A stretch of DNA of 64,000 nt. Source: Candidatus Gorgyraea atricola (GTDB lineage: Bacteria; Omnitrophota; Gorgyraeia; Gorgyraeales; Gorgyraeaceae). Positions 24,301-55,951 of this stretch are shown in pieces. Where the stretch lies: contig JAVCCW010000001.1 in the NCBI GenBank assembly GCA_030765235.1, forward strand, positions 35,172 to 99,171. Direction: 5' to 3'. The notes below the pieces were generated by a model. That model ran no database searches. It was not told the DNA's origin and saw only the letters and a program-made list of their open reading frames with translations. The position numbers and the translations under genes were made by a program. Position 1 is the stretch's first letter. Each line of letters begins with the position of its first letter.

Positions 24301-26502
24301 CTCTTTTATTTTTTCTTCAGTGGTCGCTAATGGTATTGCTAATGCCCCGTAAGTATTAACAAGTTCTCCTTTTTCGTTTTTCTGTCCAGATCTCCATACT
24401 TGCTGGTGTATTCCGCCTGTTAAAAAACAAAGATGACCCTGGCCGCCTGTCAGACCTCTAAATACATCATTCTCGAGTTTTACTGCTAAGGCAAAGATAT
24501 CTGCTTGGCTGAGGTTTGCTCCGCTTAATATACTTGCAGCTGTTATGACTGACATGCTAAAACCATTTGAAGATTCCATGCCTCCTGCCAATGCCATTGC
24601 AGGAACAGGAGGACATGTTATCCTTATGCCTTTTAATCCACAGAGATTAGCAAATACAAAAGCTGGCAAAAATCTCATATGTGCTGTACCGTTTTCATCG
24701 AGTGCTACATTTCCTTTCACTACGAGAGGTTCGTCTTCTGGGATTCCATAATCAGGAGCAACATATTCTATAGCATCCGGATCATCTGCTGCTTCGATTT
24801 TTATAGTTATGCCCATCTTGCTTGCTATAGCAACTGTTGATGGAAATTCCTCTATTTTTTTAGCTTCAATTTCAGTGTACTCGTCTTGGAACTCAGGTAG
24901 ATCCAGGCTTGAACCGCCTATTACATCTGATCCCCTTAACTGTCCAGATACAGATGTTTCGATGTCGTTTTTCTTTGCTTCTAATAATTTATTTCTTGCT
25001 TCCTCAGCGCTTACACTAGGATTAACCCATTTTTTTAACTGCTTTTCGCTCACGCGTTTACGTAATCCAAAATTTATCTTTGGGTCAAACAAATATCCTT
25101 CCACCAGCACTGCGTCTCTTACTGCTTTTCTTACCTGCGTCAGGGTCTCCTCACCTGCTCTATCCAATGTGCCTCTCTGAAGCCCCTTGCCTATTACCTT
25201 TTCTGCTGCCACTTGCATGTCTTTTAAGTCTTCATGGGTAAGACCATCAAATTCAGGTGTAAATGCAGTTGTGCCGTCTTTTCTTCGTTCGATAATCCCT
25301 AACCGCTCACCGAGTCTAAATTCAGCATCAATTGTATAATCTGAAAATGGTTCTCCTGATTTTCTATCCCTTCCTGCCTCTTTCCTCACCTGTTTTAGAT
25401 TACTGGTATTGCATACACCTACTTGATCTATAAGCGTATCCAATAGACCATAGAAAGCCCCTTCGGTCTTGGGTTTAGCGTCTAAACTAAACGCAAGACC
25501 AGCGAGTGGTTCAGCACTTATTATATTTGCAAGCATTTTCCTGAGTGCTCCCTTGGCCTTTAAAGGATTATCTGGCCACCAACCTTTATCCATAATTCTT
25601 TTTATGCCCTTATAACCTTTTGCAACCAAAAACTTGTAATGTTCTGGTTTATTTAATTTAAGCAATTTAAAGAAATCGTCTATTTTGTAGGAGTGCAAAG
25701 ATTGATAAACCATGATATCATACATAGGTATGCCAACATCCCATAGATATCTTACATGTTCATCAATAACCCATTCTGGATCATCTGTTTCCTTATTCTT
25801 GTGCATTATCTCCTCTAATATCCTTTCAAAAATAACACGTGACAATGTATCAGTATAGTTCGCTTTCATATGTTTATAATACTTCTCGTCGTCCTTATTA
25901 GTAAGGCCTTCTCCTAGTATGTAACGCTCATATAAATGATGAATCCCCTCGTCAATTGCTATATAAACTGTCTTATTTTTCTCGTCATAATATCTCCTTG
26001 CTTGAGCCTTAAGAACACCTGACTTAACTGAAATAAATTTTATTTCTTTGGCACCCAAATTCCATTCCTTGCGAAAGTTTTTAGCAAAGATATCTAGAGC
26101 CAACTCTTGGGTCGGCAGTAATCTTCCAAAAAATCCATTAAAAATATCTACTACAAACCGCTCTAATTTATCTTCATGTGATGGCAAATCGGTAGTAATT
26201 AGATCACGTGGCTTCGCATCATCTATAGCAATACCTTCTAAAAAATCTTTCATATTTGCTGTTTCCTCAATCTTATTCTCCTTACTCAATACCTCTCTTA
26301 AGGTCGGCCCTGGCATGACTACGCCCATTATAAAGCTCTCGCCTTCTTTGGCAGCCTTGCTAGTCTGTTCTACCATACCAGGATTTCCCTGTAAGGCAGG
26401 CCGCAATGAGTTGGAACTGGGGATTGCATATGCTGTATTAGTTAATAGGAAGGTTATGATGGTAAGCGTAGAGATGATTCTATTACATAGATTGCTCTTC
26501 AT
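21331..26502 (-). CDS. giant secreted multidomain protein (1723 aa). A GHMP-kinase-like motif region and a sugar-phosphate-isomerase-like region are suspected.
   Basis: Signal peptide IISTLTIITFLLTNTAYAIP is paralogous to those of the other two giant proteins. AGGMESSNGFSMSVITAAS resembles the GHMP PxGSGLGSSAA motif. TSGRHDGPYTNG is loosely PGI-like. Both domain calls are weak. Confidence 0.7.
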   Translation of the reverse strand: MKSNLCNRIISTLTIITFLLTNTAYAIPSSNSLRPALQGNPGMVEQTSKAAKEGESFIMGVVMPGPTLREVLSKENKIEETANMKDFLEGIAIDDAKPRDLITTDLPSHEDKLERFVVDIFNGFFGRLLPTQELALDIFAKNFRKEWNLGAKEIKFISVKSGVLKAQARRYYDEKNKTVYIAIDEGIHHLYERYILGEGLTNKDDEKYYKHMKANYTDTLSRVIFERILEEIMHKNKETDDPEWVIDEHVRYLWDVGIPMYDIMVYQSLHSYKIDDFFKLLKLNKPEHYKFLVAKGYKGIKRIMDKGWWPDNPLKAKGALRKMLANIISAEPLAGLAFSLDAKPKTEGAFYGLLDTLIDQVGVCNTSNLKQVRKEAGRDRKSGEPFSDYTIDAEFRLGERLGIIERRKDGTTAFTPEFDGLTHEDLKDMQVAAEKVIGKGLQRGTLDRAGEETLTQVRKAVRDAVLVEGYLFDPKINFGLRKRVSEKQLKKWVNPSVSAEEARNKLLEAKKNDIETSVSGQLRGSDVIGGSSLDLPEFQDEYTEIEAKKIEEFPSTVAIASKMGITIKIEAADDPDAIEYVAPDYGIPEDEPLVVKGNVALDENGTAHMRFLPAFVFANLCGLKGIRITCPPVPAMALAGGMESSNGFSMSVITAASILSGANLSQADIFALAVKLENDVFRGLTGGQGHLCFLTGGIHQQVWRSGQKNEKGELVNTYGALAIPLATTEEKIKEIEDRFLLVQAGKGYTDGEADDDRTAALINEMWTDFIRFRIKEGIDLLGEFKAITARNAQAYKEGDWHTLIDGVLRYVWIRDELCRIWIRNAIDAHEGKTGLPGYASKFAELAFEEKHKDKYGLVKELYDRIGGEKLREMSLYTMEPIHSAVQKLNEAHIAAQPLGAGGPSSNIGVITEETKQAAIDILKAMGIDLLTEVEAKKIIHGTGNLKGYVPFEVSMEGIKINGFEELGLQLPDGPEKVTARKRDITRMTPVKEEAPILPTKKNIRTLAKKIYDALKEGIWNPLFWDEKNKTSQDPEKLNIGDHPLIEVFCEPSSEPGKVNKINLGAFYLGKALNDPELGPKLIERTQKTAKGINKRLNDAYETDVEYVIWPGMGGSIEDKNAAIATKAIEGVNGKKLIFFGVDNVDSETLQFIYDKIVEQEREKSGELDLDYEIALKRGLKKTVVVAQALGMTSYEPVYNADNALKPIFAEYGLKLEDHFYKITIDNSYVDKALEGCQRIVHQPDQADASMPNLKGNATTSGRHDGPYTNGMLLPLALAGIDLQKWVSAANIKEEEVLGKSMPVSAWMVMNEKQGINKIVTTIPKEWQGDTSKGAWEDGALWIKQDFEESLGKDRDHLLKIVMNDDLDLKNCEPVVTGKNDKAFLVIRVKGLTNVSEKKIDQLKKAGYSVMVLDFDDDEAAQQLDDKVLLARIMSVVHWSVFGVAEQWNICAVDQPPVEFYKKIVDWMRLKKANFTRTIKAITESRYAATKDEITLNWHAMVQRGLFTEEELINELEALSAKTGRALNIFDPAHVSAAIHSIALKKGDIEYGELAHSGETSYTKDGLAMRDVLNHGDDVLWRKTLKKFADVGKLPGSGHAYHAMIKAAQKCLTTSLIGMNHLEQFKNSNVKYSSDYLKMHWLGNLLALSGYDIKREDGQKLEDGKLVAKDKPGWAMSLIFDENNEDTRHALKAYFDEVADILEKARPSILDTIEKRSKVLDSSM

Positions 26503-37907: not shown

Positions 37908-37951
37908 AGGTAATTAGTATAAACAGTTTAGTCCTTATAATCAAGAAACTT

Positions 37952-37988
37952 TACATTTAAAGCAAGACCTCAAATGTAAAGTTATTTT
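37952..37988 (-). terminator. hairpin downstream of the paralog array (12-bp stem), candidate terminator
   Basis: aactttacattt-N13-aaatgtaaagtt. Only a weak U-run follows. Confidence 0.4.
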
Positions 37989-37990
37989 AT

Positions 37991-38102
37991 CACATCCAGG
38001 ACCTCCCCCGTACCACTTCGGGTACGGGGCATGCTGGCGGGCATCGAGCCTATTAACCGTGGCGAAAACAGGCCCAAGCCGCCAGTAGGATCCGTGGATT
38101 TA
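37991..38102. repeat. conserved 3'-flank element, copy 1, immediately after the stop of paralog 1. It contains an extra 9-bp-stem hairpin.
   Basis: ...gcgggcatcgagcctattaaccgtggcgaaaacaggcccaagccgccagtaggatccgtggatttatt. Alignment by eye gives about 63/68 identity with the 39964-40053 core. Copy 1 also has ccccgtacc-acttcg-ggtacgggg. Confidence 0.8.
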
Positions 38103-39950
38103 TTAAATATCCGTTAATCTCTTGCGTTTTCTTAAAAAACTAGATTCACTATAACCTAATTTTTGTTCTGCCTTTTTAATATTACCTCTTGTTTCAGCTA
38201 ATGTATTTTTTATCAGTTCGTTTTCTTTCCCTTCAAAATAATCTTTGATATCCTTCTCTCCTTTTAAAAATCTCCACAATGGGCCTTCGTTAAGATTCGT
38301 CAATTTAGATAGCTTTTTGGAGTTACCTCCTGACTTATCGATTAATGATTTCCATTTTTTTATTTTTCTTTTCTTTATCTCTTGTTGTAACTCGAGTCTT
38401 TTTATCTTGCGCCTAAATGTAACCAAGTCAAGATTCATTAATTTAGCCGTCCTCCCGTACATATATAACCCTTCGTCAAGTTTTTTAAGCAAACTATCTA
38501 TTTCGATACGCTTTTGATTAACTGTGATCAGTGGCCATATATTATTTCTCTTAATAATCTCATAAAAACCCGATTTCTCAAACCCAGACAATTCTATTGC
38601 TTTTAATGGCTCCCATTCTGCCTTTCTCAACCAATAAATCGCAGCTGCCTTCTTCCCAAACAATGCCTTTGCCTCTATTGCGTTCTCAAGGAGCTCTGCA
38701 TGCCAAACCGCCTTATCATCAGTGGCTTGAAAGATGTGCTGCTTTATATCATCTAAATATTGATCCATATAATCATTGTAACTATAGGCGAATAATGTTC
38801 TCAATGTGTATATATTTTTGATCTTACCCCCTGGTTTTGTGTTTGTATAGTCGAGTTCTTTGATAAGCCTGCCCACTAGCTCCTCTTCTGATAACGTGTC
38901 TATATTATTGATGTTTAATAATGCGCTTTCTTTCTTAAACACATCTATTTTATTTTGATTTGCAACCAAACCACCCCGCAGGATTGACAGCTTAGTATCC
39001 ATTTGATCTATTATGTCACTAAAAATAACTGGCCTCTCCTTGCAATACCAATTCTTTCTAAGCCATTTACAGAATAACAACCAATCATAATCCTTGTTTC
39101 TTGCCGATTTTTTTATAAAGAGATCTTTTATTTTCTTATGGGTCTGTGTCATCATTTTAAACTCTGAAAAGCGCTGTTTAATTCTGCTGGTTATAAAAAT
39201 GCCCTTTATGGGTAAGTCTAATCCTGATAATAGACGTCCTTTCTTTGTCAAACAATACCTGTGGGGCCATGCTCCGGCAGACTTAGCTTCACCTGTCCGT
39301 TCCATATAAAAAACTTCTGCAACATAGCCAAGCTTTTTGGCTTCTTGAATAGAGCGAAATACTGTAAGCTTATCTATGTCGTTTTCTGTGATCTCTTTGT
39401 ACGACTCTACGATATCAAGAATACTAAAACTGCCAGAACCTTTTAAAGCGCATGTCTTTAATACATTCAAGCTCTTTAAGGGTTTAACTTTTCTATTGCC
39501 TACGAGAAGATCTATATCTAGATTATTTTTAGAAAATAGGCTTGTTATTTCTTTTGCATCATCGCTTAATTTATAAAAACCATATCCTACTTTTACAAGA
39601 TAGCCATCTCGATATAATCTGTTTATGTGATTATGGGCTTTTGTGTCATTCAATTTTGTTCCTGTAATATTTCCATTGCATACCATCCTATATGTCCTTC
39701 TTGAAAAAGGTTTATCAAGAAAATTAACATCAGCAAGTATCTTTATAGCTACTATATTCGATTTTACAAGTCTTAAGCCTTTTTGAAGCACCAGGCTATT
39801 GTCAGAGACTACAACATCTAGCTTCTGACACAATTCACTCCCCCTGCCGCCAAGGCCCAGGGGATTCCTCAGAGTAGACGCATACACTATCTGCTGCGCT
39901 AAGAAAATACTAAGTATCAATATTGAAATTATCTTTTTTGCCTTCTCCAT
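38103..39950 (-). CDS. paralog 1 of the signal-peptide/HTH family (615 aa). It has a C-terminal Fis-type HTH.
   Basis: Signal peptide KKIISILILSIFLAQQIVYASTLRNPLGLGG. The C-terminus NTLAETRGNIKKAEQKLGYSESSFLRKRKRL has the Fis/NtrC HTH_8 pattern. Confidence 0.7.
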   Translation of the reverse strand: MEKAKKIISILILSIFLAQQIVYASTLRNPLGLGGRGSELCQKLDVVVSDNSLVLQKGLRLVKSNIVAIKILADVNFLDKPFSRRTYRMVCNGNITGTKLNDTKAHNHINRLYRDGYLVKVGYGFYKLSDDAKEITSLFSKNNLDIDLLVGNRKVKPLKSLNVLKTCALKGSGSFSILDIVESYKEITENDIDKLTVFRSIQEAKKLGYVAEVFYMERTGEAKSAGAWPHRYCLTKKGRLLSGLDLPIKGIFITSRIKQRFSEFKMMTQTHKKIKDLFIKKSARNKDYDWLLFCKWLRKNWYCKERPVIFSDIIDQMDTKLSILRGGLVANQNKIDVFKKESALLNINNIDTLSEEELVGRLIKELDYTNTKPGGKIKNIYTLRTLFAYSYNDYMDQYLDDIKQHIFQATDDKAVWHAELLENAIEAKALFGKKAAAIYWLRKAEWEPLKAIELSGFEKSGFYEIIKRNNIWPLITVNQKRIEIDSLLKKLDEGLYMYGRTAKLMNLDLVTFRRKIKRLELQQEIKKRKIKKWKSLIDKSGGNSKKLSKLTNLNEGPLWRFLKGEKDIKDYFEGKENELIKNTLAETRGNIKKAEQKLGYSESSFLRKRKRLTDI

Positions 39951-39963
39951 AATCTATCCTAAA

Positions 39964-40053
39964 TCCAGGACCTCCTAGCGGGCATTGAGCCCATTAACCG
40001 TGGCGAAAACAGGTCCAAGCCGCCAGTAGGTGCCGTGGATTTATTGTCTTCTG
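39964..40053. repeat. conserved 3'-flank element, copy 2, immediately after the stop of paralog 2
   Basis: ccaggacctcctagcgggcattgagcccattaaccgtggcgaaaacaggtccaagccgccagtaggtgccgtggatttatt. Confidence 0.8.
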
Positions 40054-42648
40054 CTACAAACACTTCCTTGTCAAATTATAATCTCTTAATCTTTTATCAA
40101 AATATGAAAGCTTTAGCCCTGACATGAGCCAAGCCTCTTTTTGCATATCTACCGAGAGTACCAAAGACCTCAACCACTCCTCCTCTAATTGTTCAAAATA
40201 AGACAATAACTTATGTTCTCGCAGTACAGTCCTTAAGTTAATTACACCTTTTTCAGAATAACCTGCCAAACTAGCTGTTTTTATAATGTTGCCTCCTCCT
40301 TTCTCAATGCATTTCTGGAGAAAAAGGGTCTTTAGGTTATATTTACGCAATTTATATTTCGAAGTTGAAAGTGAAATTTTCTTATCGCCATCCTTTATAG
40401 CAAGAATTAATTTCTCCTTTTCTTCTTCTTCGCCCTTTTTCTTTCTTTCTTTAGCTTCTTTATCAAGCTTGTCACGAATATCATACTTGACTAACAATTT
40501 TCTTACAGTACGTCTAGCAAGATGCATTGCTATGGCTGTCTTAGTAACGTTACATCCGCTACTACGATATTCGCGGATCAATTTTGTCCTATACAACTCA
40601 TCCTTATTATCTTTGATTAGTTGATTCAATTTATGCCTTTTTATGCGCATATGCAAAGTTCGTAGTGGGATACCTGATAAATCGGCTGCCTTCCTTATAT
40701 GCCAATCTGTCTGAGCTAAATAATAGAGAATGGCTTCTCTTTCAAACGATTCATCAAAAGATATGTTCCCTTCTATAAACAACCTGAGTAGTTTTGCATA
40801 CCATTGTAATTTAGATATATTCTGACTCTCAAATTTAACAATATCTTTTAAATATCTCTTCATATGACTCTCTGAAGCATGATGCAAAAGCGCCTTTATT
40901 AAATCTATATGCAGCTTCACTCTCTTCGGACTTGTATTCAAAAGCTCTAGCCTGCTCATAAGTCTTGTGGTTATCTTTTCTTTCGAAAGCTTTTTTATTG
41001 TCTGATCATTCAAGTTTAATAATATGCTTTCTTCTGTAAAAGGGTTTTTTAACATTGTCTTGTTTTTCAAATTTTTATCTATTCTGGCAAGGATGCTGCC
41101 ATGGGTGCCCATTCTTTCTGCCATCCATCTGCAAAACGCTATCCAGTCTACATTATTCTCTTGGTTACTTATTTTTAAAAGTTCTTCCATTTTTACAAAA
41201 ACAAGCTGAGTAATTTCTTTTTTTATTTCTTCTTTATCCCTATTGATATTCGTAATTTCACTATTTCCTTTGGGCGGTTCTTTAATATGTAATTTTTGCT
41301 TTATCTCGCTAAAAATTTTGATCTCGACACCATCCATATTTTCTACATCCTCTAGATATTCTAAGATACCTTTTAATTCACGTGTCTTTGTCTTTTCCAT
41401 TTCAGCTTTAAAGGTCCTATTGTATGCTTCCAAAAATCCCTCTTTGCAATAAAACCTTAATATCAGATATAAGATGGTGTACAGTTTCTTTGCATCTTCT
41501 GCCATACTAGTTAATGTACTATTTTTCTTTATTCCTATGATACTACCAAGGGCTACATATGCCTCTAAAAGCCTCTCTTTTGATCTCATCAAATCTCCAG
41601 TAGAATAGTTACTTAAAACATCCTTTAAGTAACTGCACTTTTCTTTAACCCTTTTGTCCAATGAATACTTTAGCCCGTCATAACCAAAATGTCTCTCGGA
41701 AATAATCTCGAGCTTATCTACTAGTAGATATAAAGCCTGTTTTAGCTCTTCTCGTCTTCCTGACGCTATGCTGCCGTTGGATTTTCCAAAAATACCTTCA
41801 CATATTTCACTAAAGCCAAGCCATTTTTCATTTTTATGCAGCAAGTCCAAAACTTGTATTAAATAGCTATCTTGATCTTTGTCCTGCACTAGATAGTCAT
41901 CTTGGCCATTAAACACTCTATCGATAATATGCCTATGCTGTTCCAGCTTCTCAAAATCTAAAATCCCCCTCAATGGAAGTTTTGCCTCAGTTAGTTTTAT
42001 CAGCTCTGGTGAACATCGATAAAGTCCATGCTCGATTCTTATTATATGTCCCACGTCTTTAGCCTGTTGTAAAAAACTCTTCAATCTAGTCTCATTTTTA
42101 AATGCATAATCCCCATCTATACGACTGCATATGTCAAATACCTGTTTTCGACTAAAGCTTCTCTCTTTTTCTCCTATAAGAGTAAACAATTTAACTGTAT
42201 TTAGATAATCTACATTCAATAAAAGCCTAAAAAAAGTATTGGAATTTTGATGGGCGATTATCAATTGTTTCGCAGGTTCAGTTACTATATACTTTTTGCT
42301 TGGCAATGCCACAAGGATACCGACTTCAATGCCATGTTTTAAGTAATGTTTGTGGTTTGGGTCATTATGACGAGCATCATTATAATTGTCCCTATAAAAT
42401 AGATTAAGAGCCTTTTCGAATTCATCCTCAGAAAATTCCCCATTAGTCATATTTGCTGATGCAATAACTTTTAAGAGATGCACTGCTATCCTATCATCAT
42501 AAGCAGAGAGCTCCAAATATACCTTTCCAAATCTATCAGATCCCCCACAAAGCGGATTGCGCAGACTCTGTGCATAGATTGGCTGGTGGGTTAAGATAGC
42601 TATTAATATTAAGATTGAGATGAGTTTTTTTGATGTTTGCATATACAT
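40054..42648 (-). CDS. paralog 2 of the signal-peptide/HTH family (864 aa). It has three C-terminal Fis-type HTH-like motifs.
   Basis: The N-terminus KKLISILILIAILTHQPIYAQSLRNPLCGGS is near-identical at the DNA level to paralog 4. The HTH motifs are around GIPLRTLHMRIKRH, VTKTAIAMHLARRTVRKLL and GGNIIKTASLAGYSEKGVINLRTVL. Confidence 0.7.
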   Translation of the reverse strand: MYMQTSKKLISILILIAILTHQPIYAQSLRNPLCGGSDRFGKVYLELSAYDDRIAVHLLKVIASANMTNGEFSEDEFEKALNLFYRDNYNDARHNDPNHKHYLKHGIEVGILVALPSKKYIVTEPAKQLIIAHQNSNTFFRLLLNVDYLNTVKLFTLIGEKERSFSRKQVFDICSRIDGDYAFKNETRLKSFLQQAKDVGHIIRIEHGLYRCSPELIKLTEAKLPLRGILDFEKLEQHRHIIDRVFNGQDDYLVQDKDQDSYLIQVLDLLHKNEKWLGFSEICEGIFGKSNGSIASGRREELKQALYLLVDKLEIISERHFGYDGLKYSLDKRVKEKCSYLKDVLSNYSTGDLMRSKERLLEAYVALGSIIGIKKNSTLTSMAEDAKKLYTILYLILRFYCKEGFLEAYNRTFKAEMEKTKTRELKGILEYLEDVENMDGVEIKIFSEIKQKLHIKEPPKGNSEITNINRDKEEIKKEITQLVFVKMEELLKISNQENNVDWIAFCRWMAERMGTHGSILARIDKNLKNKTMLKNPFTEESILLNLNDQTIKKLSKEKITTRLMSRLELLNTSPKRVKLHIDLIKALLHHASESHMKRYLKDIVKFESQNISKLQWYAKLLRLFIEGNISFDESFEREAILYYLAQTDWHIRKAADLSGIPLRTLHMRIKRHKLNQLIKDNKDELYRTKLIREYRSSGCNVTKTAIAMHLARRTVRKLLVKYDIRDKLDKEAKERKKKGEEEEKEKLILAIKDGDKKISLSTSKYKLRKYNLKTLFLQKCIEKGGGNIIKTASLAGYSEKGVINLRTVLREHKLLSYFEQLEEEWLRSLVLSVDMQKEAWLMSGLKLSYFDKRLRDYNLTRKCL

Positions 42649-42652
42649 ATCT

Positions 42653-45600
42653 CTATGGGCATACCTCTAGATAAACTCTGGATTTTTTCTGCTCGCCTAA
42701 GTCAAATTTTTCAATCTCTTCAAGGAGCATCTCTTCCATTATTTCATTCATTATTTCAAACTTTTCTTCTTTTGTTGATGGAGCTAAAAGGCGGATGTCT
42801 CTTTTTTGGCGCCTGTCCATCTCTTTTGAGAGCTGTGTTCTTGCTTTGTCAAATTCCTTTTGTATATAGTCTACTGGATTATCAACACTTGTGCGCAGGT
42901 GTAGAATCCATGCCAATGTCTCTAATGTATCATCTAGCTCTTCTTCTTTAAGAGGGTCTTGACTCCACAGTGCCCATAGGATAATCTTTCTTTGTGTTGA
43001 AAGCTGGTCAAATATTCTGCCAAAACGCTTGCCCCAGTAACAGGCTTGGTTTAGCCAAGAGTTAAAGAGATTAATCCTTCCTATTATCTTTCTTTCCAGT
43101 TTTTCTTTTTGAGCCTTTGCCGTTCTTCTGATAGAGGTATTAAGCAGCTCTAATCCCTCTCCATGGCCTTTGGTCTTTTTGCCACGCAGCTTCTCTGTCA
43201 AGGGTAAAGCAGGGTCGATTATATAATCATCTTCTTCATCAGTCATAACTACTGCGCCTTTTAGCATTGGCTCGTAGTTTATTTTCCATGTTTTTTTTAT
43301 ATTAAGTTCAGCCTTAAGGTATTCTCTAAAACTTTGGTCTTGGTCATAGACAAATCCTCTATATGATAATGTATTATAATATTTAGTAAATTCCTGGTAT
43401 TCTCCAATCCATTCTCCTATAATTCCATATAGTTTGAAAATACCGTCATTTAAGAGATCACTGAAATACCTGTCTCCCCAATAGCCATCTGGGTCTGAAA
43501 CCCAGGTGTATTTTTTAACCTCTTCTATGATTAGCCAGAAGTGTGCTTCTGCAAACTCATCCCTGGCCTCTATATCGCCTTTTATGATTCTTTCTATTAG
43601 ACGAGCTTCTTTTTCAATGTCTAAGCCCTTCTTTGGCTTCTTGTAATCATCTAGGATGTACTTTAGGGGAGACTCTGTGCTGGATACCATTGTCTTTTTA
43701 CGCTTTAGATAATTTTTCTCTTCTTCTGCAGCATTTATCCCATCTTCTATGCGTTCTCTAAGAATTGGGTATTCTCCTTCTGTAAGCTCTAAGAGCACCT
43801 GTGCCTTCTTAAAAGAGCTTAATGCTGATCTAGGAAGCTGGCTTATGTCTAACTTGATCTCTGCTTTTTCTAATAACTCTTGTATTTTTTCAACAATAGC
43901 TAGCTCTAGAGCATATTTAAGATCCTGAGCGTCTTTAATGATAGTCTCATCTATGTGTTCTCCAAACTCTAACTGTTCAAAAACATTATTGATAGCTCGC
44001 TGCGCCGATCTGTACGAACCTTTTTGCAGATTAAACTGTGCTTTATCAAGATATTCTTCTGGGGTAAGAATCCTATATCTCCTGGCCATCTGAATCTGAC
44101 TTAATTTGTAGTTTGTCTCTTTCAATACCTTTGAAATCTGAAAGAATAGCTCCATATCCATAGGTGAAGCCCAATATTTTTTGGCCCACTTTAATCTCCG
44201 TGCAGCATCTGATAGCGCACCCTTCTTCATATACTGCATGCCCTTATTAAATAAGGACTGCACGATCTCTTCTTGTCGCTCAAAATCGAATTCGATTTTT
44301 TCCACAAACTGCTCCAGTATATCCCCCTGCATATCTATAATAACCGGCAAACCATATTTATCCAGAAGTGGTCGATTCTTTTTATCCTCTACAAGCCTTA
44401 GAAGTTTTGCCTCGCCATCAATAACTAAAACATCAATCCTTGCCCCAGCTAAGCCAGGCAAATGACATTTTAAATCTATAATGTTCCAATATAATATCTC
44501 ACTTTCTGGAACAGGTAAATCTATAATAAGACACGATTTTAGCCCTCTCGGTTTATTAATGCTCTTAGAGGCTTTGCTACCATCAAACATACAGACAAAA
44601 CCTCCTTCTTTAAAGGCGTTGATAAAATTTCCTTTTTCAAAAGCAGTCTTTGCTTCTTTAGCCAGTTTAAACATTGCTGATAGTCTTTTTTTAGCCATCA
44701 CCTCGCCATGTTCATCCAATACCTCTGCCTCTTTAACAATCGATTTCCCATTAAAATGTTGAATCTCAGTAACTCTTGCTTCTTTGTCGGCACACTTGAG
44801 GCCAAACTCCACACGTCTCTTCCCTGCTAAGAATAGATTTCCAGAGCTATTTAGCTTTAGACCTTCTATCCCATGCTCTACGTTGAGTTGATTAAACTTT
44901 TCTTTCCCAAGATAGTAAAAACCAAAGACCGTCTCTCGAATCTCTTTGTTCCTAACTCTACCAAGAGGAGAAGAAAACTCAGACTCCAGAGAAAAGACCT
45001 TATGAAACAATGTGTCAGGATAGTAGGTTATAAGCTCGCATCGTTCATCTGGATTTGTTAATAATCTAAAACGTCCTGTCGCTGTTACTGCAAACTGTAT
45101 GCCCCCATTACTCAATCCGCTATTTATTAGAACTACGATCTTTTTATACTTAGGATCAGTGCAATATTTTTGAAACTCCTTGCTATCAATTGCCCCTCTG
45201 TGGACACGTATAACGCTACGCTTGCCTTTCTCGTCAATGCCAATGATAGGCAAAAACTCCTCTGCAGCTATTGTTAGTCCGTCTTTTTTAAACAAAATCA
45301 TTCGCGGGATGCCGTCTTCCCATTCTACCTCGTACTCCTGGTGTGCATACTTGTCTGGATTAAACAAAAAACCATACTCTTCTAGTTTAAGAGCGGGGGA
45401 TCCTTTAAATCTACCGCGCAACACAACATGCCCTTGTTCTTTTAGATATTGGATCTTGCCCTTATGGCCCCGTGGCAATTCTTCGAAATCAACATAGTTA
45501 ACCTGTCCACCAAAGGCATGCTGGAGTTTAAGGTTCCAGAGATGTGCTTTTAATGCGCTATGCTCTTCTCCTAACCCGCCCTTATCTTTTGCCCTTAATA

Positions 45601-46240
45601 ACTTATTCAAGGCAATGCGCTTACGTTTGTCATTAAGAAACTTAAACACAACATCTTGTTTCCATAGGTCACTTACGTCCTCTATCTGCAATCGCTCTAG
45701 TAGGCGCTGTACAGGTAGACGTTTCTTCACAGTCTCTACGACACCAGCCAGATTAGTAAGTGCGCCATCGCGATTAAAGTCTGAAAATAGCTCAGGGTTT
45801 GTTTCAATAATAGAATAGCCTTGTTTTAAAAGTTCATTGTCAGGTTCTACGTCTCTAAGTTTATGCTCAAATATCAAACTCCAGATATCATTGACTAGGA
45901 TATTATCATCTGTGTATTTCCCATTGTTTGGGTCTAAGCTTAAATAACTATTTTTTAAAGAGCTTAATGTCTTGTTTTTTATAGAGTTATACCAGCTAGG
46001 GTCATGATATCTATTCACCTCAATCCATGCCTTGGATATTTCACGTACTAAATTAGGTTTCGCTTGAAGGTTTTTTAGTCCAATATATATTGCCTGATAA
46101 AGTAGACCTTTTTTTAATATCTTCCTGCCTTTTTCATTGCTTGCTAAAAGACGAGACCTAAGACCCTGCGCATAGATTGGCTGGTGGGTTAAGATAACTA
46201 TTAATATTAGAGTTGAGATGAGTTTTTTTGTGTTTTGCAT
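42653..46240 (-). CDS. paralog 3 of the signal-peptide family (1195 aa). It has a possible sigma-70 region-2-like segment.
   Basis: N-terminus KKLISTLILIVILTHQPIYAQGLRSRL. FSDLLNDGIFKLYG resembles the ECF sigma region 2.2 DLxQExF motif, but this is weak. Confidence 0.65.
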   Translation of the reverse strand: MQNTKKLISTLILIVILTHQPIYAQGLRSRLLASNEKGRKILKKGLLYQAIYIGLKNLQAKPNLVREISKAWIEVNRYHDPSWYNSIKNKTLSSLKNSYLSLDPNNGKYTDDNILVNDIWSLIFEHKLRDVEPDNELLKQGYSIIETNPELFSDFNRDGALTNLAGVVETVKKRLPVQRLLERLQIEDVSDLWKQDVVFKFLNDKRKRIALNKLLRAKDKGGLGEEHSALKAHLWNLKLQHAFGGQVNYVDFEELPRGHKGKIQYLKEQGHVVLRGRFKGSPALKLEEYGFLFNPDKYAHQEYEVEWEDGIPRMILFKKDGLTIAAEEFLPIIGIDEKGKRSVIRVHRGAIDSKEFQKYCTDPKYKKIVVLINSGLSNGGIQFAVTATGRFRLLTNPDERCELITYYPDTLFHKVFSLESEFSSPLGRVRNKEIRETVFGFYYLGKEKFNQLNVEHGIEGLKLNSSGNLFLAGKRRVEFGLKCADKEARVTEIQHFNGKSIVKEAEVLDEHGEVMAKKRLSAMFKLAKEAKTAFEKGNFINAFKEGGFVCMFDGSKASKSINKPRGLKSCLIIDLPVPESEILYWNIIDLKCHLPGLAGARIDVLVIDGEAKLLRLVEDKKNRPLLDKYGLPVIIDMQGDILEQFVEKIEFDFERQEEIVQSLFNKGMQYMKKGALSDAARRLKWAKKYWASPMDMELFFQISKVLKETNYKLSQIQMARRYRILTPEEYLDKAQFNLQKGSYRSAQRAINNVFEQLEFGEHIDETIIKDAQDLKYALELAIVEKIQELLEKAEIKLDISQLPRSALSSFKKAQVLLELTEGEYPILRERIEDGINAAEEEKNYLKRKKTMVSSTESPLKYILDDYKKPKKGLDIEKEARLIERIIKGDIEARDEFAEAHFWLIIEEVKKYTWVSDPDGYWGDRYFSDLLNDGIFKLYGIIGEWIGEYQEFTKYYNTLSYRGFVYDQDQSFREYLKAELNIKKTWKINYEPMLKGAVVMTDEEDDYIIDPALPLTEKLRGKKTKGHGEGLELLNTSIRRTAKAQKEKLERKIIGRINLFNSWLNQACYWGKRFGRIFDQLSTQRKIILWALWSQDPLKEEELDDTLETLAWILHLRTSVDNPVDYIQKEFDKARTQLSKEMDRRQKRDIRLLAPSTKEEKFEIMNEIMEEMLLEEIEKFDLGEQKKSRVYLEVCP

Positions 46241-46266
46241 AAGCTTATATTCAGGCCCGAGGCATC

Positions 46267-48243
46267 TTAAATAAAAATGCTACATCTTCTATTAGGTCTT
46301 ATTAATTGTTTCATTCTCTTTATTAATTGTATAGCTCTTCCTGAGTTTTGTTCTATCTTGTAAATCAAGTTCGCTGCGGCCTCTGTGAAGCCATCGTAAT
46401 CCAAAAATCTCTTGGCCCAGCATGTATAATCTTTCATATAAGGTTTGAAAGCATAGATATGAAGAAAATTTAAAAGATTTATATTATAATTTACAATGAG
46501 CGTATTATGGACTACGCCAAACCTTAACTCATTAAAGATCGTGATCACATCTCTCTCTTTCAATGGTAAAAGATCTGACTTGCTAATAAATTTCTCCATC
46601 ATGCCTCCATCATCTAACAAATTTATTTCAAAACCTAAGTCTTTACAGAAAAGTTGTTTAGTAATCTTGCTGTTAGATTTTTTTATATTCTTTTTTATTC
46701 CTAATCTCCTCTTCTTTATCCAGGCAATATCAAGTTCTTTAAAGGGTGGGAGTTTATATTGACTAATAATAAAACGTGGGAGGTCAGATCTCTTGGTGCC
46801 TGGAGGCACAATCCACCCATCTAAGCAAATAACCTTTACTGGCTTTAGTTCCCCATTTGTTCCACTATAAAGACGATTTAGCAATAATTTATATATTTCT
46901 TTTTTAAGCCTACGCTTACAATAATCCCGCTCTCCATCTGGATCTACTTTTAAAAAATTACTGATGAGGCGTAGCGATCCAGCATCTGCTCTCTTGATAT
47001 TCATTAGCTTCTTTTTAAAAATTACTTCTCTGTCAGCAATATTACAGGCGTGCATATATTTTAATGTCAAATATAACTCTATATATAAATCTGCTGATTT
47101 TTCGGACATCTTTCCCAATATAGAACTGTCCTCTAGGAGTCCTGGCTTGTATAGCTCGAAATAAAGGTCTCTAAACTTTCCATTCATAGAAGTTTTATTT
47201 ACAGAATCAAAAGGGAACTTTTTCAATATTTTTTTTGACTTATTAAGTCTGTTCCTTATTTCTTCATCAAGTCTAAATCTATAATATCTTCCATCATGTT
47301 TCGACAGAATAATTCCAAGATTCTCAGAAATCTTCTCAACAACTTCTACGATGTATCTCCTCTCAATGTTCGGCAATAGAGATCGCATATCTTGATATGC
47401 CAAAGTGTCGTGCTCGCATAAAAGATCCAGCACCTTTGTCAATACCAAATAAAGATCTGAGCTGGTAGATTGTGGAATCCTTCTCCCTATCTCCTCCATG
47501 ATAAATGTGCCTTTTATGGGGAATTCTTTTGCTGCGAATTTAATCCCTCTTGTTGTCAGCTTATATTTCTTATAACCAGCCTCTATGATATGTCCCTTTT
47601 CCTTTGCTTGTCGTAAAAAATGACCTATCATATTACTGATACCGTTCTCGCTCCTGGTATCTATCCCATTTCCAATAACTGTCTTGTACAACACTAATGG
47701 ATCCTGCTTTGAAAATGCTACTTCTTTCCCTATAAAAAAACACACCTTAAGTACATTTATATAGTCCAGTGCACTGATGCGATGTCTATTTTCTAAAATG
47801 TCTGCATGTTCTTTTAATTCATTAAAAATTCTGAGAAACTCCTTTGCATCATCAGTCAGCTTGTACATATCTCCTATTTTCTCAAGACAGCCCTGCCTAA
47901 CTCCTCGTTTTAGATGTTGATAAGCTCCAGCTATAGAAATTTCTTTACCTTTAGTGAGCGTATTAAACGCATCTTGATACGCCTTAGTCGTAAAGGCCTT
48001 TCTCGAAAGAACTTTCGCTTCGAAGATCACATGAAGCAAGCTAAAAGTTTCGATTCTTGGATTTACTAGTCCCTTATCAAGCGTGAGGGTATTATTTGAA
48101 GCTGCGTTTACCTCCTGGCAACCTTTTCCAATCCTAGGAGATCCCCCACAAAGCGGATTGCGCAGACTCTGTGCATAGATTGGCTGGTGGGTTAAGATAA
48201 CTATTAATATTAGAGTTGAGATGAGTTTTTTAAAGTTCTTCAT
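46267..48243 (-). CDS. paralog 4 of the signal-peptide family (658 aa) with winged-helix-like segments
   Basis: N-terminus KKLISTLILIVILTHQPIYAQSLRNPLCGGS. LRQAKEKGHIIEAGYKKYKLTTRG has the wHTH wing pattern. Confidence 0.7.
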   Translation of the reverse strand: MKNFKKLISTLILIVILTHQPIYAQSLRNPLCGGSPRIGKGCQEVNAASNNTLTLDKGLVNPRIETFSLLHVIFEAKVLSRKAFTTKAYQDAFNTLTKGKEISIAGAYQHLKRGVRQGCLEKIGDMYKLTDDAKEFLRIFNELKEHADILENRHRISALDYINVLKVCFFIGKEVAFSKQDPLVLYKTVIGNGIDTRSENGISNMIGHFLRQAKEKGHIIEAGYKKYKLTTRGIKFAAKEFPIKGTFIMEEIGRRIPQSTSSDLYLVLTKVLDLLCEHDTLAYQDMRSLLPNIERRYIVEVVEKISENLGIILSKHDGRYYRFRLDEEIRNRLNKSKKILKKFPFDSVNKTSMNGKFRDLYFELYKPGLLEDSSILGKMSEKSADLYIELYLTLKYMHACNIADREVIFKKKLMNIKRADAGSLRLISNFLKVDPDGERDYCKRRLKKEIYKLLLNRLYSGTNGELKPVKVICLDGWIVPPGTKRSDLPRFIISQYKLPPFKELDIAWIKKRRLGIKKNIKKSNSKITKQLFCKDLGFEINLLDDGGMMEKFISKSDLLPLKERDVITIFNELRFGVVHNTLIVNYNINLLNFLHIYAFKPYMKDYTCWAKRFLDYDGFTEAAANLIYKIEQNSGRAIQLIKRMKQLIRPNRRCSIFI

Positions 48244-48401
48244 AATCTACAAACAAAAAAGCCGAGCTGTCAGATAAGACAACGCGGCCTTGTAAGCTTG
48301 TCAGGATCCACGGTTTACTTTATCCAGACGCTCCTTATATGCTATTATAATAGATTTATAAACATTTTAACACAAGCCCCTAATAATGTCAATAACAATC
48401 C

Positions 48402-48444
48402 CTAAAGTAGACAAAACAGTCACTGACGGATTTGTCTACTTTAG
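48402..48444. repeat. palindromic REP-like element, copy A (14-bp arms), abutting the transporter stop codon
   Basis: ctaaagtagacaaa-N15-tttgtctactttag. Its arms are identical to copy B at 58521-58563. Confidence 0.85.
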
Positions 48445-49706
48445 CGCCAGGTTAGGTAGAGGAAGATGTAGGCAGATGTGACTGCGGCTAGAGTGAATGG
48501 TAGGCCGATCTTGAAAAATTCGCCAAATGAGACCTTGTATCCCCTGTCTCTGAGCATGCCCATTGACACAATGTTGGCTGAGGCGCCTATAGGGGTTATA
48601 TTACCGCCTAATGTAGCGCCTATTAATAAGCCGAATAGGAATAGCTCTGGCCTTGCGCCTGTATTGAGCGCAAGGATATTGGCAACAGGTATCATTGCTA
48701 TAACATAGGGAATATTATCAATAAAAGCAGAGCATAAGACTGAGATCCATACGATTAGAGTAAATGTCAGGAAGATATTGCCGCCTGTTAGGCCTGATAT
48801 AAATCCTGCGATATCCTGGATTACACCTACATGAGAAAGCGCTCCTATAAGAACAAAGACGCCTATTAAAAAGAAAAATGTGCGCCAGTCTATGTTCTTC
48901 GTGAAAGAAAAATGTTCTTTTGCAAAAAACTTATGCCATAAAAGGCCAATAGCGCCAAAGAATAGACATATAAGCGCGATACTGTAATAAGGCTTATTCT
49001 GGATAAAACTTGATGCACCAAGTGAAAGAATCATGAGCGTCATTAAAATGGTGGGCACCCATGTCTTGATCTTTATCTCTTCTATCTTCTGGACACCCTG
49101 TTTGTATTTCCTGAAAAGTAGGTATAACACTATGAATGAGGCAATGGCGCCTATTTCGACTGCGAATGCAATGCCAGGCCTTCCTTTCATCCAGAAAAAG
49201 TCCATGAAGTTCATGCGGTGAGACATGGCTAAGATTATACTGGGTGAATCGCCTATCATTGTGGCTGAACCCTGGAGATTTGAGCTTATGGCTATGCCTA
49301 TTAAGAAAGGAATGGGATTTGCTTTTAATTTTTTTGCAACCTCAAAGGCGATTGGCGCTACTATCAGAATAGTTGCTACATTTTCTGTAAAGCTGGATAT
49401 AAAACCGGCCAGGAGACACAAAAATAAAATTGCCGCGCCAACATTTTTTGACTTTCCAACAAGCCGCGATGCCAGAAATCCAGGCACATTGGAATAGATA
49501 AACAGGCCCGAGAGTATCATTGTGCCGAGAAATACGCCAAGCACATTGAAATTTATGCTTAAAAATGCGTCCTTTACGCTAATCGCCTGGAAGACTAAAA
49601 GAATCGCGATACCGCTAAATACTGACACCAGGGGGTTAAGCTTGCGATTAAATAAAATTATCGTAAGATAGGTAAGCAAAAATGTAACTATTACAAAAAT
49701 CTTCAT
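48441..49706 (-). CDS. ArsB/NhaD-superfamily (SLC13/CitT-like) anion permease
   Basis: About 12 TM segments. Conserved loops such as NVATILIVAPIA and GGNITPIGASANIV point to the ArsB/NhaD permease superfamily. Confidence 0.65.
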   Translation of the reverse strand: MKIFVIVTFLLTYLTIILFNRKLNPLVSVFSGIAILLVFQAISVKDAFLSINFNVLGVFLGTMILSGLFIYSNVPGFLASRLVGKSKNVGAAILFLCLLAGFISSFTENVATILIVAPIAFEVAKKLKANPIPFLIGIAISSNLQGSATMIGDSPSIILAMSHRMNFMDFFWMKGRPGIAFAVEIGAIASFIVLYLLFRKYKQGVQKIEEIKIKTWVPTILMTLMILSLGASSFIQNKPYYSIALICLFFGAIGLLWHKFFAKEHFSFTKNIDWRTFFFLIGVFVLIGALSHVGVIQDIAGFISGLTGGNIFLTFTLIVWISVLCSAFIDNIPYVIAMIPVANILALNTGARPELFLFGLLIGATLGGNITPIGASANIVSMGMLRDRGYKVSFGEFFKIGLPFTLAAVTSAYIFLYLTWR

Positions 49707-54408: not shown

Positions 54409-55766
54409 CTTTTTCTCAATCGATCGAGATATTCTCTTATCTTTTTCTCGTACCCAATATCTGTTGGTTCGTAATAAATTTTTTTATCTGGAATGTATTC
54501 CTGGTCCACGTAGTGATCCTTATATTGATGAGCGTATTTATAGTCTTTGCCATGGCCTAATATCTTTGCGCCAGGATAGCTGGCATCCTTTAGGTGTTTT
54601 GGCACTTCAAGCGTCTTATGCGCTTCTACATCCTTCATTGCCTTTTCAATGCCAAGGTACGCTGCATTGCTTTTTGGCGCGCAAGCAATATAGCAGACAG
54701 CCTGCGCCAAAGGAATCCTTGCCTCTGGCATGCCCACAAATTCAGCCACCTGAAAGGCCGCGTTTGCCACTACAATCGCCTGCGGGTCAGCATTGCCCAC
54801 ATCCTCTGCAGCGCAGATAACAATGCGACGCGCAATAAACCGAGGATCCTCTCCCGCGTAAAGCATCTTTGCGAGCCAGTATAGCGCTGCGTCAGGATCT
54901 GAGCCGCGCATGCTCTTTATAAAAGCAGATATCGTATCATAATGTCCGTCTTCGTCCTTGTCATACAGGACTGCTTTTTTCTGTATAGACTCTTCTGCTA
55001 CCTTTATATTAAAATCTACGATTCCTGATTTCGGCTTTATTGTTAATGCGCCTACTTCAAGCGCGTTAAGCGCCTTTCTCGCATCACCATCACACACATC
55101 TGCGAGAAAATTCAAAACATTCTGTTCGACCTTAATAGATATTTTCCCAAGACCTCTTTCCTTGTCTCCTAAGGCATTCTTCAATATGCTGATTATGTTT
55201 TCTTTTGATAATTTCTTTAATTCAAAAACTATTGATCGCGATATGAGCGGCGAAACCAGACTAAAAAATGGATTATGTGTTGTGGCGCCTATCAATACAG
55301 GATTGCCTGACTCCACATCCGGCATCAATACATCCTGCTGCGCCTTATTAAACCTGTGGATCTCATCTATAAAAAGTATGGTCTTCTTGCCAGATGCTCG
55401 TTCTCGCTCTTTGCTCGCCCTGATCGCATCCCTTAATTCCTGGACATTTGAAAGTACAGCGTTTATCTCATAAAAATATGTCTTTGTAATATTCGCGATC
55501 ACATGCGCGAGAGCAGTTTTTCCTGTGCCTGGCGGGCCATAGAGGATCAAAGAAGCGATCCTGTCAGCATCTATTGCTCTTCGCAAAAGCTTACCCTCGC
55601 CAAGTATATGCGTCTGGCCTATAAACTCGTCCAAAGTCCTTGGCCGCATCCGCACAGCTAAGGGCTCGTATTTTTTCACGTTCTTTTTTTTGGATTCAAA
55701 TAAATCAGGCATGAGAAAATAAAAATCCCCGCTAGTGCCGCATGAAAGGCCGTATTTTGAACCCAT
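54405..55766 (-). CDS. rarA: replication-associated recombination protein A (AAA+ ATPase RarA/MgsA)
   Basis: Walker A LYGPPGTGKTALA, Walker B ILFIDEIHRFNK, sensor and C-terminal MgsA domains. The true start may be the internal MPDLFES. Confidence 0.85.
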   Translation of the reverse strand: MGSKYGLSCGTSGDFYFLMPDLFESKKKNVKKYEPLAVRMRPRTLDEFIGQTHILGEGKLLRRAIDADRIASLILYGPPGTGKTALAHVIANITKTYFYEINAVLSNVQELRDAIRASKERERASGKKTILFIDEIHRFNKAQQDVLMPDVESGNPVLIGATTHNPFFSLVSPLISRSIVFELKKLSKENIISILKNALGDKERGLGKISIKVEQNVLNFLADVCDGDARKALNALEVGALTIKPKSGIVDFNIKVAEESIQKKAVLYDKDEDGHYDTISAFIKSMRGSDPDAALYWLAKMLYAGEDPRFIARRIVICAAEDVGNADPQAIVVANAAFQVAEFVGMPEARIPLAQAVCYIACAPKSNAAYLGIEKAMKDVEAHKTLEVPKHLKDASYPGAKILGHGKDYKYAHQYKDHYVDQEYIPDKKIYYEPTDIGYEKKIREYLDRLRKR

Positions 55767-55951
55767 TTAGCAAGTGGGTGCCCTCTTAGATGTTTGGTGT
55801 TCCCTAGCTCCTAAGAACCAGGTCTACAGCCACACCTAACGTTAGGCTCCCAATTTAATGGTGTTGGCTCAAAAACTTCCTTTTCACCGCGCGCGCTGCA
55901 GGGATACCTATATTATAGCATAAAGAGCTGAATAAATCAACTCGGCGCCCC

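Follow-up and report, generated by a model that had tools for sequence, protein, structure and literature searches.

A hypervariable gene array of Candidatus Gorgyraea atricola with signal-peptide-like leaders, helix-turn-helix-type domains and a homogenised 5′ block

Gene content of the array and its N-terminal leader

We analysed a 64,000-nt stretch of DNA (the window) from Candidatus Gorgyraea atricola (Omnitrophota), in which four tandem genes, P1 to P4, encode proteins of 615 to 1195 residues that all start with the same type of N-terminal leader. The window is part of a 119-kb contig of a metagenome-assembled genome (MAG) from Ace Lake, and the proteins carry this species name at NCBI. 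The MAG is the type MAG of an Omnitrophota genus and comes from Ace Lake, Antarctica (PMC8542988). An earlier note, made from the letters of this DNA alone, had described four co-directional open reading frames (ORFs) here; we recovered them with exactly the same boundaries, all on the minus strand and in the order P4>P3>P2>P1 (Table 1). The intergenic gaps P4-P3, P3-P2 and P2-P1 measure 26, 4 and 103 nt. In the NCBI annotation P2 starts at 42642, which makes it 862 residues long.

All four N-termini can be written as M..KK(L/I)IS(I/T)LIL...YA(Q/S)(S/T/G)LR. The shared start up to YA thus holds for the whole array, as had been claimed, but the motif LRNPLCGG, also attributed to all four proteins, is present only in P2 and P4; the corresponding residues are LRNPLGLGG in P1 and LRSRLLAS in P3. 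By inspection the leader has the n-h-c layout of a signal peptide, with KK in front, a core of 12 residues and then IYA or VYA, followed by Q or S, in agreement with the Sec-type signal peptide that had been proposed for these helix-turn-helix (HTH) proteins.

Table 1. Features of the array and proteins that bear the same N-terminal signature. Positions refer to the window unless another locus (L001 or L003, from two further Gorgyraea-like genomes) is named.
Feature	Position	Strand	Description
P4	46267..48243	-	658 aa, P9L93_00365; putative signal peptide, two predicted winged-helix units (aa ~50-260), helical middle common to P2, unique C-terminal part
P3	42653..46240	-	1195 aa, P9L93_00360; orphan protein, aa 1-37 alone common to the family
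P2	40054..42648	-	864 aa; putative signal peptide, two predicted winged-helix units, helical middle, C-module with four HTH-like units
P1	38103..39950	-	615 aa; diverged signal-peptide copy, two predicted winged-helix units, C-module with four HTH-like units
5′ block of P4	48139..48231	-	codons 5-35
5′ block of P3	46161..46228	-	equals P4 across codons 5-23, then abrupt divergence
5′ block of P2	42538..42630	-	equals P4 across codons 16-35
HTH_8 (Fis/NtrC-type) unit of P2	40636..40752	-	aa 633-671; 34.8-39.5 bits
HTH_8 unit of P1	38118..38225	-	aa 576-611; 27.1-30.1 bits
Sigma-70-like promoter	48364..48392	-	TTGACA-17 nt-TAAAAT, extended TG; 11/12 matches
Conserved 5′ leader	48244..48363	-	~115 nt; terminator-like hairpin 48266-48283 and T-run directly before the P4 ATG
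GC-rich hairpin element between P2 and P1	39968..40045	-	copy of hairpin 1 of the 3′ module; repeat D2, 88% identity; fold z-score -3.0
Conserved 3′ module of three hairpins	37947..38104	-	GC-rich; z-scores -4.75 and -4.78; last hairpin (37947-37983) terminator-like, after P1
Three unrelated proteins with the signature	5380-10458, 10462-15411, 21331-26502	-	1649-1723 aa; Pfam HEAT, NAD-epimerase, UDPGP, Metallophos, AAA, GHMP kinase (some sub-threshold)
Aldolase-like protein with the signature	L001 10456-11376; L003 ~1040-1978
Acetate kinase with signal-peptide-like extension and T/A-LRP-x-M	L001 11392-12717; L003 1992-3332		Pfam E = 8e-100

Three paralogues and one unrelated gene

The array had been described as four paralogues sharing an N-terminal module. 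P2 and P4 can be aligned over about 400 N-terminal residues (27% identity, E = 8e-29), and P2 and P1 have a C-module of about 250 residues in common (28% identity, E = 2e-19), with a weaker match at the N-terminus. In P3 the BLASTP match to the other three proteins is confined to residues 1-37. As P1, P2 and P4 are homologous beyond the leader and P3 is not, the array consists of three paralogues and one unrelated gene with the same leader, and the shared module belongs to the three. P3 was also considered as a diverged member of the family and rejected, the 305 residues following the match giving a probability of 1% against the family N-module in hhalign.

HTH_8-like motifs had been noted in all four proteins. 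The Pfam model HTH_8 (PF02954) scored above its gathering cut-off (22 bits) in P1 and P2; the Pfam scan gave no HTH_8 match in P3, P4 or the related protein from L001. The best PDB sequence match of the P2 unit is the NtrC-family HTH 4l5e. In both proteins the HTH_8 unit lies within a run of four HTH-like units, the other three of which match HTH models below threshold.

The N-module was more difficult to assign, as neither it nor the C-module is covered by any Pfam model. It contains the wing-like pattern 'GHI..Y.LT..G', and in the AlphaFold2 model of P2 it folds into two helix-helix-helix-beta-hairpin units. The mean predicted local distance difference test score (pLDDT) of this model is 42, with 70-82 for the first of the units (unit A) and 62-77 for the HTH_8 unit. 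Foldseek against PDB returned mostly winged-helix proteins (MukF, JetA, PadR, MarR, CadC, COR, MAGE), none of them significant (best E = 0.17), a result that is indicative only because of the low mean pLDDT. The winged helix of eS10 ranked first in the PDB profile search (E = 0.09), and HTH_45 reached 17.5 bits, below its cut-off of 25.5. All this is in line with the winged-helix-like segment seen earlier. The predicted architecture of the family starts with a Sec-type signal peptide, followed by two winged-helix units and then a helical middle, to which P1 and P2 add a helical C-module that ends in the four Fis-type HTH-like units. No second hydrophobic segment was found in the hydropathy profiles of mature P1, P2 and P4.

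Judging from these domains, the family proteins are probably DNA-binding. It is improbable, in our opinion, that they are exported and that their winged-helix and HTH units, instead of binding DNA, hold proteins together as scaffolds in the envelope or at the cell surface. Tandem winged helices do play such a role in kleisins, cullins and COR domains, the top Foldseek matches include the protein-binding winged helices of MukF, JetA, MukE, MAGE, COR and cullin, and P4 has no HTH_8. However, those fold matches are non-significant and come from a poor model, HTH_8 is a DNA-binding module and scored above its cut-off, and the isoelectric points (9.3-9.7) and net charges (+31 to +40) of mature P1, P2 and P4 suit nucleic-acid binding.

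Regarding P3, the situation was less clear. In protein searches it matches only itself, and its AlphaFold2 model, made for P3 alone, is unusable (mean pLDDT 36). By eye, residues ~870-985 (with the resemblance to region 2 at ~885-910) and ~1080-1130 display a pattern resembling sigma-70 regions 2 and 4. All top NCBIfam matches of this stretch are sigma factors, at scores far below the cut-offs (SigK E = 0.006, RpoD 0.02, sigma70-ECF 0.03), and the match to the PHROG sigma family phrog_351 is sub-threshold as well (E = 0.005). Pfam and PDB sequence searches for a sigma-70 domain were empty and no NCBIfam region model rose above its cut-off. A phage, plasmid or defence island found no support: tblastn of P3 against phages returned nothing, PHROGs and PADLOC gave only noise at E > 1e-4, and the slot is syntenic in three genomes.

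Homogenisation of the 5′ block

The 5′ ends of P2, P3 and P4 form a repeat family, D1 (42524-42643, 46122-46241 and 48125-48244), of which no further copy was found within the window. The near-identity of P2 and P4 that had been noted here is real: over codons 5-35 only 4 of 93 nt differ, one of the differences being synonymous. The boundary is also sharp, and beyond the block the two proteins are only 27% identical. Part of the block is shared by P3, as had been reported. Since P3 equals P4 over codons 5-23 and P2 equals P4 over codons 16-35, the tracts are mosaic.

Within the genome the block is 95% (P2/P4) and 89% (P3/P4) identical, against 79-81% between species; the copy in P1 is only 60-64% identical to the others. 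The comparison of synonymous sites suggested in the earlier note gave the same picture. Of the codons for the same amino acid, P2 and P4 have 24 of 25 identical; the between-species figure is 14 of 19 and that for the comparison with P1 is 8 of 17. The excess in P2/P4 is significant in a binomial test (P = 0.005 with the between-species rate as reference, 2e-7 with that of P1). Paralogues are thus closer to each other within the genome than orthologues are between species, synonymous sites included, and the tract ends are sharp. The pattern fits recombination or gene conversion acting on the sole stretch that is long and similar enough to recombine, which is what had been suggested for this 5′ cassette, and the presence of the cassette on the unrelated P3 points the same way, as does a chimeric P2/P4 protein from another assembly (P0008, see below). 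The locus makes a clear natural case of concerted evolution that is limited to about 90 nt.

Selection on an element at the nucleotide level, such as a small-RNA target or a translation-control site, could also keep the block uniform; we regard this explanation, likewise raised earlier, as very unlikely. The block is about 80% conserved between species and the rest of the gene is not, and no obvious Shine-Dalgarno sequence precedes P4, P3 or P2. Yet in none of the five copies does the block fold into an RNA structure better than shuffled sequence (z-scores +0.1 to +1.7), the excess of identity exists only within the genome, the tract ends vary by gene pair, and P1 works with its strongly diverged copy. 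Moreover, the between-species identity of the block does not exceed the genome background (83-88%), so that ordinary purifying selection on the peptide would suffice to explain its conservation.

The repeat could finally be an artefact of collapsed or chimeric MAG contigs. An independent MEGAHIT assembly (ENA ERZ27315536, contig k141_212442, locus L006) is 99.96% identical to the window over 44730-49654 and reproduces permease, leader, P4 and P3 with the blocks of both genes; its k of 141 is longer than any exact stretch of the repeat. Collapse is thereby excluded for the P4 and P3 copies, which answers the concern about assembly voiced in the earlier note. In addition, no two of the three copies are the same, each lies in frame with a long intact ORF, and the family gene of another species bears the same signal peptide. 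In favour of an artefact, P2 and P3 are on record from the NCBI MAG alone, and P0008, a JGI/IMG protein from a 3,685-bp contig that falls into the 90% cluster of P4, demonstrates that either assemblers or the population join the head of P2 to the body of P4. We consider an artefact extremely improbable overall, and for P4 and P3 it is largely refuted.

P0008 itself is an exact chimera of P2 residues 1-36 and P4 residues 35-658, with the crossover inside a 60-nt stretch that is identical in P2 and P4. Such a junction is either what a crossover between direct repeats would give (a duplication or an excised circle) or the product of an assembler jumping through the repeat.

We looked for further traces of the block and of a dedicated recombination system. 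In a collection of genome contigs that seems to lack both genomes, a degenerate 26-nt pattern of the block gave no match, and a leader peptide pattern gave 600 stretches, none of them confirmed. Programmed variation by an invertible shufflon or a diversity-generating retroelement is not indicated either. There is no meaningful inverted repeat, and family searches of the four proteins found no recombinase above threshold and no reverse transcriptase, the neighbouring genes not having been annotated exhaustively.

A hypervariable slot with conserved borders

A HMMER search of 1.84 billion representative proteins returned six matches: P1, P2, P4, a 733-aa protein, one fragment and an unrelated protein with three HTH_8 domains. 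The 733-aa protein belongs to a longer ORF of 786 aa in assembly GCA_018818505.1 (L001 7941-10301), which has the same leader (MQTPKKLTSILILITLLTQHLVYAQGLRNPL) and an internally duplicated N-module, giving four predicted winged-helix units, and lacks a scoring HTH_8. The fragment comes from a third genome (locus L003). A metagenome scan re-found only the organism of L001 (as L002), and a profile search for the signal peptide in a set of 5.8 billion proteins yielded three candidates, none of which scored. The fast-diverging family is without described relatives and known so far only from three Gorgyraea-like genomes, the window's included.

All three loci have the same flanks, namely PALP-HcyBio-NifU-Rex-permease on one side and HAD-DUF523-NYN on the other. 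Between them the window has its four genes, and L001 and L003 each combine a single family gene with genes for an aldolase-like protein and for acetate kinase, the last of which is absent from the slot of the window. The flanking genes of the window and L001 are 83-88% identical in DNA and 86-94% in protein; for the family proteins the identity is 33-36%. These figures bear out the idea of a variable, lineage-restricted system. The array fills a hypervariable slot between conserved housekeeping genes, with the permease upstream and the HAD hydrolase downstream.

The four genes are likely one operon, because the best sigma-70-like site lies upstream of P4 and a terminator-like hairpin follows P1. 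The promoter is the top-scoring site of a 12-kb scan, and its -10 element and the sequence after it are conserved in L001. The 5′ leader downstream of it is about 88% identical to L001 7717-7839 over 123 nt and could act as an attenuator or be a separate small RNA. The 3′ module of three hairpins also recurs, after the L001 family gene (L001 10302-10450, z-score -7.1), and is more than 90% conserved between species. Neither the 5′ leader nor the hairpin modules matched any Rfam family. Given that the flanks, the 5′ leader and the 3′ module are conserved while the content differs, we see here a slot with conserved borders and hypervariable content.

In L001 another ~110 nt separate the conserved 5′ leader from the family gene. 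They include a palindromic insert, GTCATTGCGAGCCCCGAAGGGGCGAAGCAATC, at L001 7895-7930, which looks like a small repeat element and is absent from the window.

The GC content at third codon positions is 0.33-0.36 in P1-P4 and in three large genes of the window that bear the same kind of leader, compared with 0.40-0.46 in the housekeeping neighbours. The dip thus goes with this class of genes and is no clear sign of transfer.

The leader recurs on unrelated proteins

The N-terminal leader turned out not to be specific to the array. A wider signature, consisting of Lys/Arg, a hydrophobic core of 11-13 residues, x-Y-[A/S/G], 1-12 further residues and then [G/S/T/A/N]-L-R-x-x-[L/M/I], is found in at least six further families whose enzyme domains are of the cytoplasm type, among them the three large proteins of the window and the aldolase-like protein and acetate kinase of L001 and L003 (Table 1). 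Positions -3 to -1 read [IVAS]-Y-[ASG] in 11 of 12 proteins from about seven unrelated families. In the window, L001 and L003 together, the LR motif is found in 11 of 13 signal-peptide-like ORFs and in 1 of 55 others (Fisher P = 6e-10), a count that treats homologues separately and represents about seven independent families from three genomes.

Other types of N-terminal signal were also inquired for. The lipobox [LVI][ASTVI][GAS]C is absent: the Cys of NPLCGG comes eight residues after YA, has Leu at -1 and is missing from P1, P3 and the L001 protein. Neither a Tat twin-Arg motif nor a type IV prepilin leader (G|F-T-L-I-E) occurs in the 12 N-termini. The combination of signal peptides with cytoplasm-type domains has been described for long proteins of Omnitrophota (bioRxiv 10.64898/2026.06.07.730766; 10.1101/2023.11.21.568195). 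In those two works and in the curated family libraries that we searched, we found neither the LR motif nor HTH cargo, and no curated family covers the motif.

Export or membrane tethering

We tentatively favour the reading that the array proteins are exported through Sec over one in which they are tethered inside the cell. The first ~33 codons would be a portable targeting cassette, nearly identical at the DNA level in P2, P3 and P4. Recombination or gene conversion between the adjacent genes would homogenise it and may also have grafted it onto P3. The proteins would pass through Sec and be cleaved by signal peptidase I after YA, which is suggested by the classical n-h-c layout and the conservation of the -3/-1 site across unrelated families. 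By analogy with TcpF, the LR motif near the new N-terminus may be a second sorting signal for a further export step. Outside the cytoplasm, the basic multi-HTH proteins might act on nucleic acid, either extracellular DNA or that of a partner cell, and the family may diversify under diversifying selection in an arms race. Omnitrophota have been proposed to be predators or parasites (PMC10066038).

Several points weigh against this reading. The topology of the leader was read by eye, as a predicted signal peptide. The window contains no secretion machinery. In E. coli, Sec export tends to be impaired when an Arg stands a few residues past the cleavage site. The cargo domains are all cytoplasmic in type (HTH, the sigma-like stretch, acetate kinase, NAD-dependent epimerase, GHMP kinase, AAA), and acetate kinase is the inferred ATP-yielding step of Gorgyraia (PMC10066038), so its export would be biochemically odd unless there is a second copy. 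DNA binding by the family is itself predicted from its domains, with the winged-helix assignment coming from a low-confidence model (mean pLDDT 42) and non-significant fold matches (E >= 0.17). P0008 is possibly a short-read assembly chimera, and the association of the LR motif with leaders is carried by the few independent families mentioned above.

The main rival reading is that the N-terminus is a cytoplasm-facing membrane tether or a pro-sequence, with the conserved YA...LRxP stretch as a site of regulated proteolytic release, as in pro-sigma-K of Bacillus. We hold this to be rather unlikely, although it gains weight from the list of cargoes, given the inferred role of acetate kinase in ATP production. 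All the cargo domains need cytoplasmic substrates (DNA, ATP or NAD), and the N-terminal extension is kept on the acetate kinase orthologues of both the L001 and the L003 genome. An Arg, often with further Lys/Arg, follows the hydrophobic core, and the best, sub-threshold NCBIfam match of the sigma-like stretch of P3 is SigK. However, with 2-4 Lys/Arg before the core and about one in the next 15 residues, the positive-inside rule favours an N-in/C-out orientation. The core of 11-13 residues, with a mean 19-residue hydropathy of only 1.5-2.0, is short for a membrane anchor. The AXA-like -3/-1 site, which is a requirement of signal peptidase I at the outer face, is conserved across unrelated families, and hypervariability would be unusual for housekeeping regulators.

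The export reading can be taken one step further. P1-P4 might travel by an export route not yet described, present in Gorgyraeaceae and perhaps across Omnitrophota, whose cargo carries an N-terminal signal in two parts: a Sec signal peptide ending in x-Y-A and, after it, small-L-R-x-x-L/M/I. This we consider a speculative and improbable extension. The cargo, proteins with cytoplasm-type activities taken out of the cytoplasm, would comprise the multi-HTH DNA binders and the sigma-like protein as well as acetate kinase, the aldolase-like protein, kinases and nucleotide-sugar enzymes. They could be bound for a partner or prey cell, where P1-P4 would be effectors that hijack transcription, or for a metabolically active extracytoplasmic compartment. 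Genes would be swapped in and out of the cargo slots by recombination, both in the shared 5′ cassette and in the conserved borders formed by the leader and the 3′ hairpins.

Comparison with known systems

P1 and P2 each resemble Fis/NtrC-type proteins in one HTH unit scoring above the PF02954 cut-off, with 4l5e as the nearest PDB sequence. They differ in lacking a receiver or AAA+ domain, in placing this unit among four consecutive HTH-like ones and in carrying a putative signal peptide at the N-terminus. The likeness to winged-helix regulators of the MarR/PadR type lies in the predicted helix-helix-helix-beta-hairpin unit occurring twice in the N-module and in PadR, OhrR, CadC and IdeR being among the top fold matches. 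Unlike these regulators, the family has two such predicted units per chain (four in the L001 protein), large helical regions and an export-type leader, and it shows no significant sequence or fold match to them.

A conserved leader followed by a hypervariable mature part is known from the conotoxin superfamilies and from the tandem lipoprotein families of Borrelia and Staphylococcus, and gene conversion at 5′ ends occurs among the outer-membrane protein genes of Helicobacter pylori. As in these families, the array combines paralogues in tandem with concerted evolution, and its leader is conserved even at synonymous sites, up to a sharp boundary past which divergence is rapid. Its mature proteins differ, being made of cytoplasm-type DNA-binding domains, and an unrelated neighbour and enzymes bear the cassette as well. 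The pattern as such is therefore known from secreted and surface gene families. What is new, within the databases and literature searched, is its occurrence on multi-HTH proteins, together with a shared motif after the signal peptide on enzymes.

The host-targeting motifs RxLR of oomycetes and PEXEL of Plasmodium belong to eukaryotic systems. In these too, otherwise unrelated, fast-evolving proteins have in common a short Arg/Leu motif that lies between a few and about 15 residues past a signal peptide. The motif itself is a different one, and the likeness of the array concerns the leader sequence and not delivery into cells.

A bacterial parallel is TcpF, which has a short secretion signal at its mature N-terminus that is read by the minor pilin of a type IVb pilus (PMC9565799, PMC10120004). 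The two-step logic would be the same, first a Sec signal peptide and then a short linear motif for a pilus or type II-like machine, and Omnitrophota encode machines of this kind beside their giant genes (10.1101/2023.11.21.568195). TcpF shows no sequence similarity to the leader of the array and the window has no such machinery, so the comparison is an analogy only. The giant proteins of Omnitrophota come from the same phylum and class, and the proteins of 1649-1723 residues in the window share the N-terminal signature of P1-P4. In contrast to them, P1-P4 have 615-1195 residues, and P1, P2 and P4 are built of HTH-type units.

Omnitrophota are widespread, uncultured and probably host-dependent nanobacteria, for which the shared leader and motif offer a searchable handle on interactions with other cells. 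With the motif as a query, the full range of cargo can be compiled from the 176 complete genomes now available, and machinery of matching occurrence can be sought. Export would make this one of the rare instances in which bacteria send transcription-factor-like proteins and ATP-dependent enzymes beyond the cytoplasm; tethering inside the cell would reveal a lineage-wide habit of anchoring regulators and enzymes to the membrane.

Elsewhere in the window, a 6S RNA gene was identified at 55722-55907 on the minus strand (Rfam RF00013, 87 bits).

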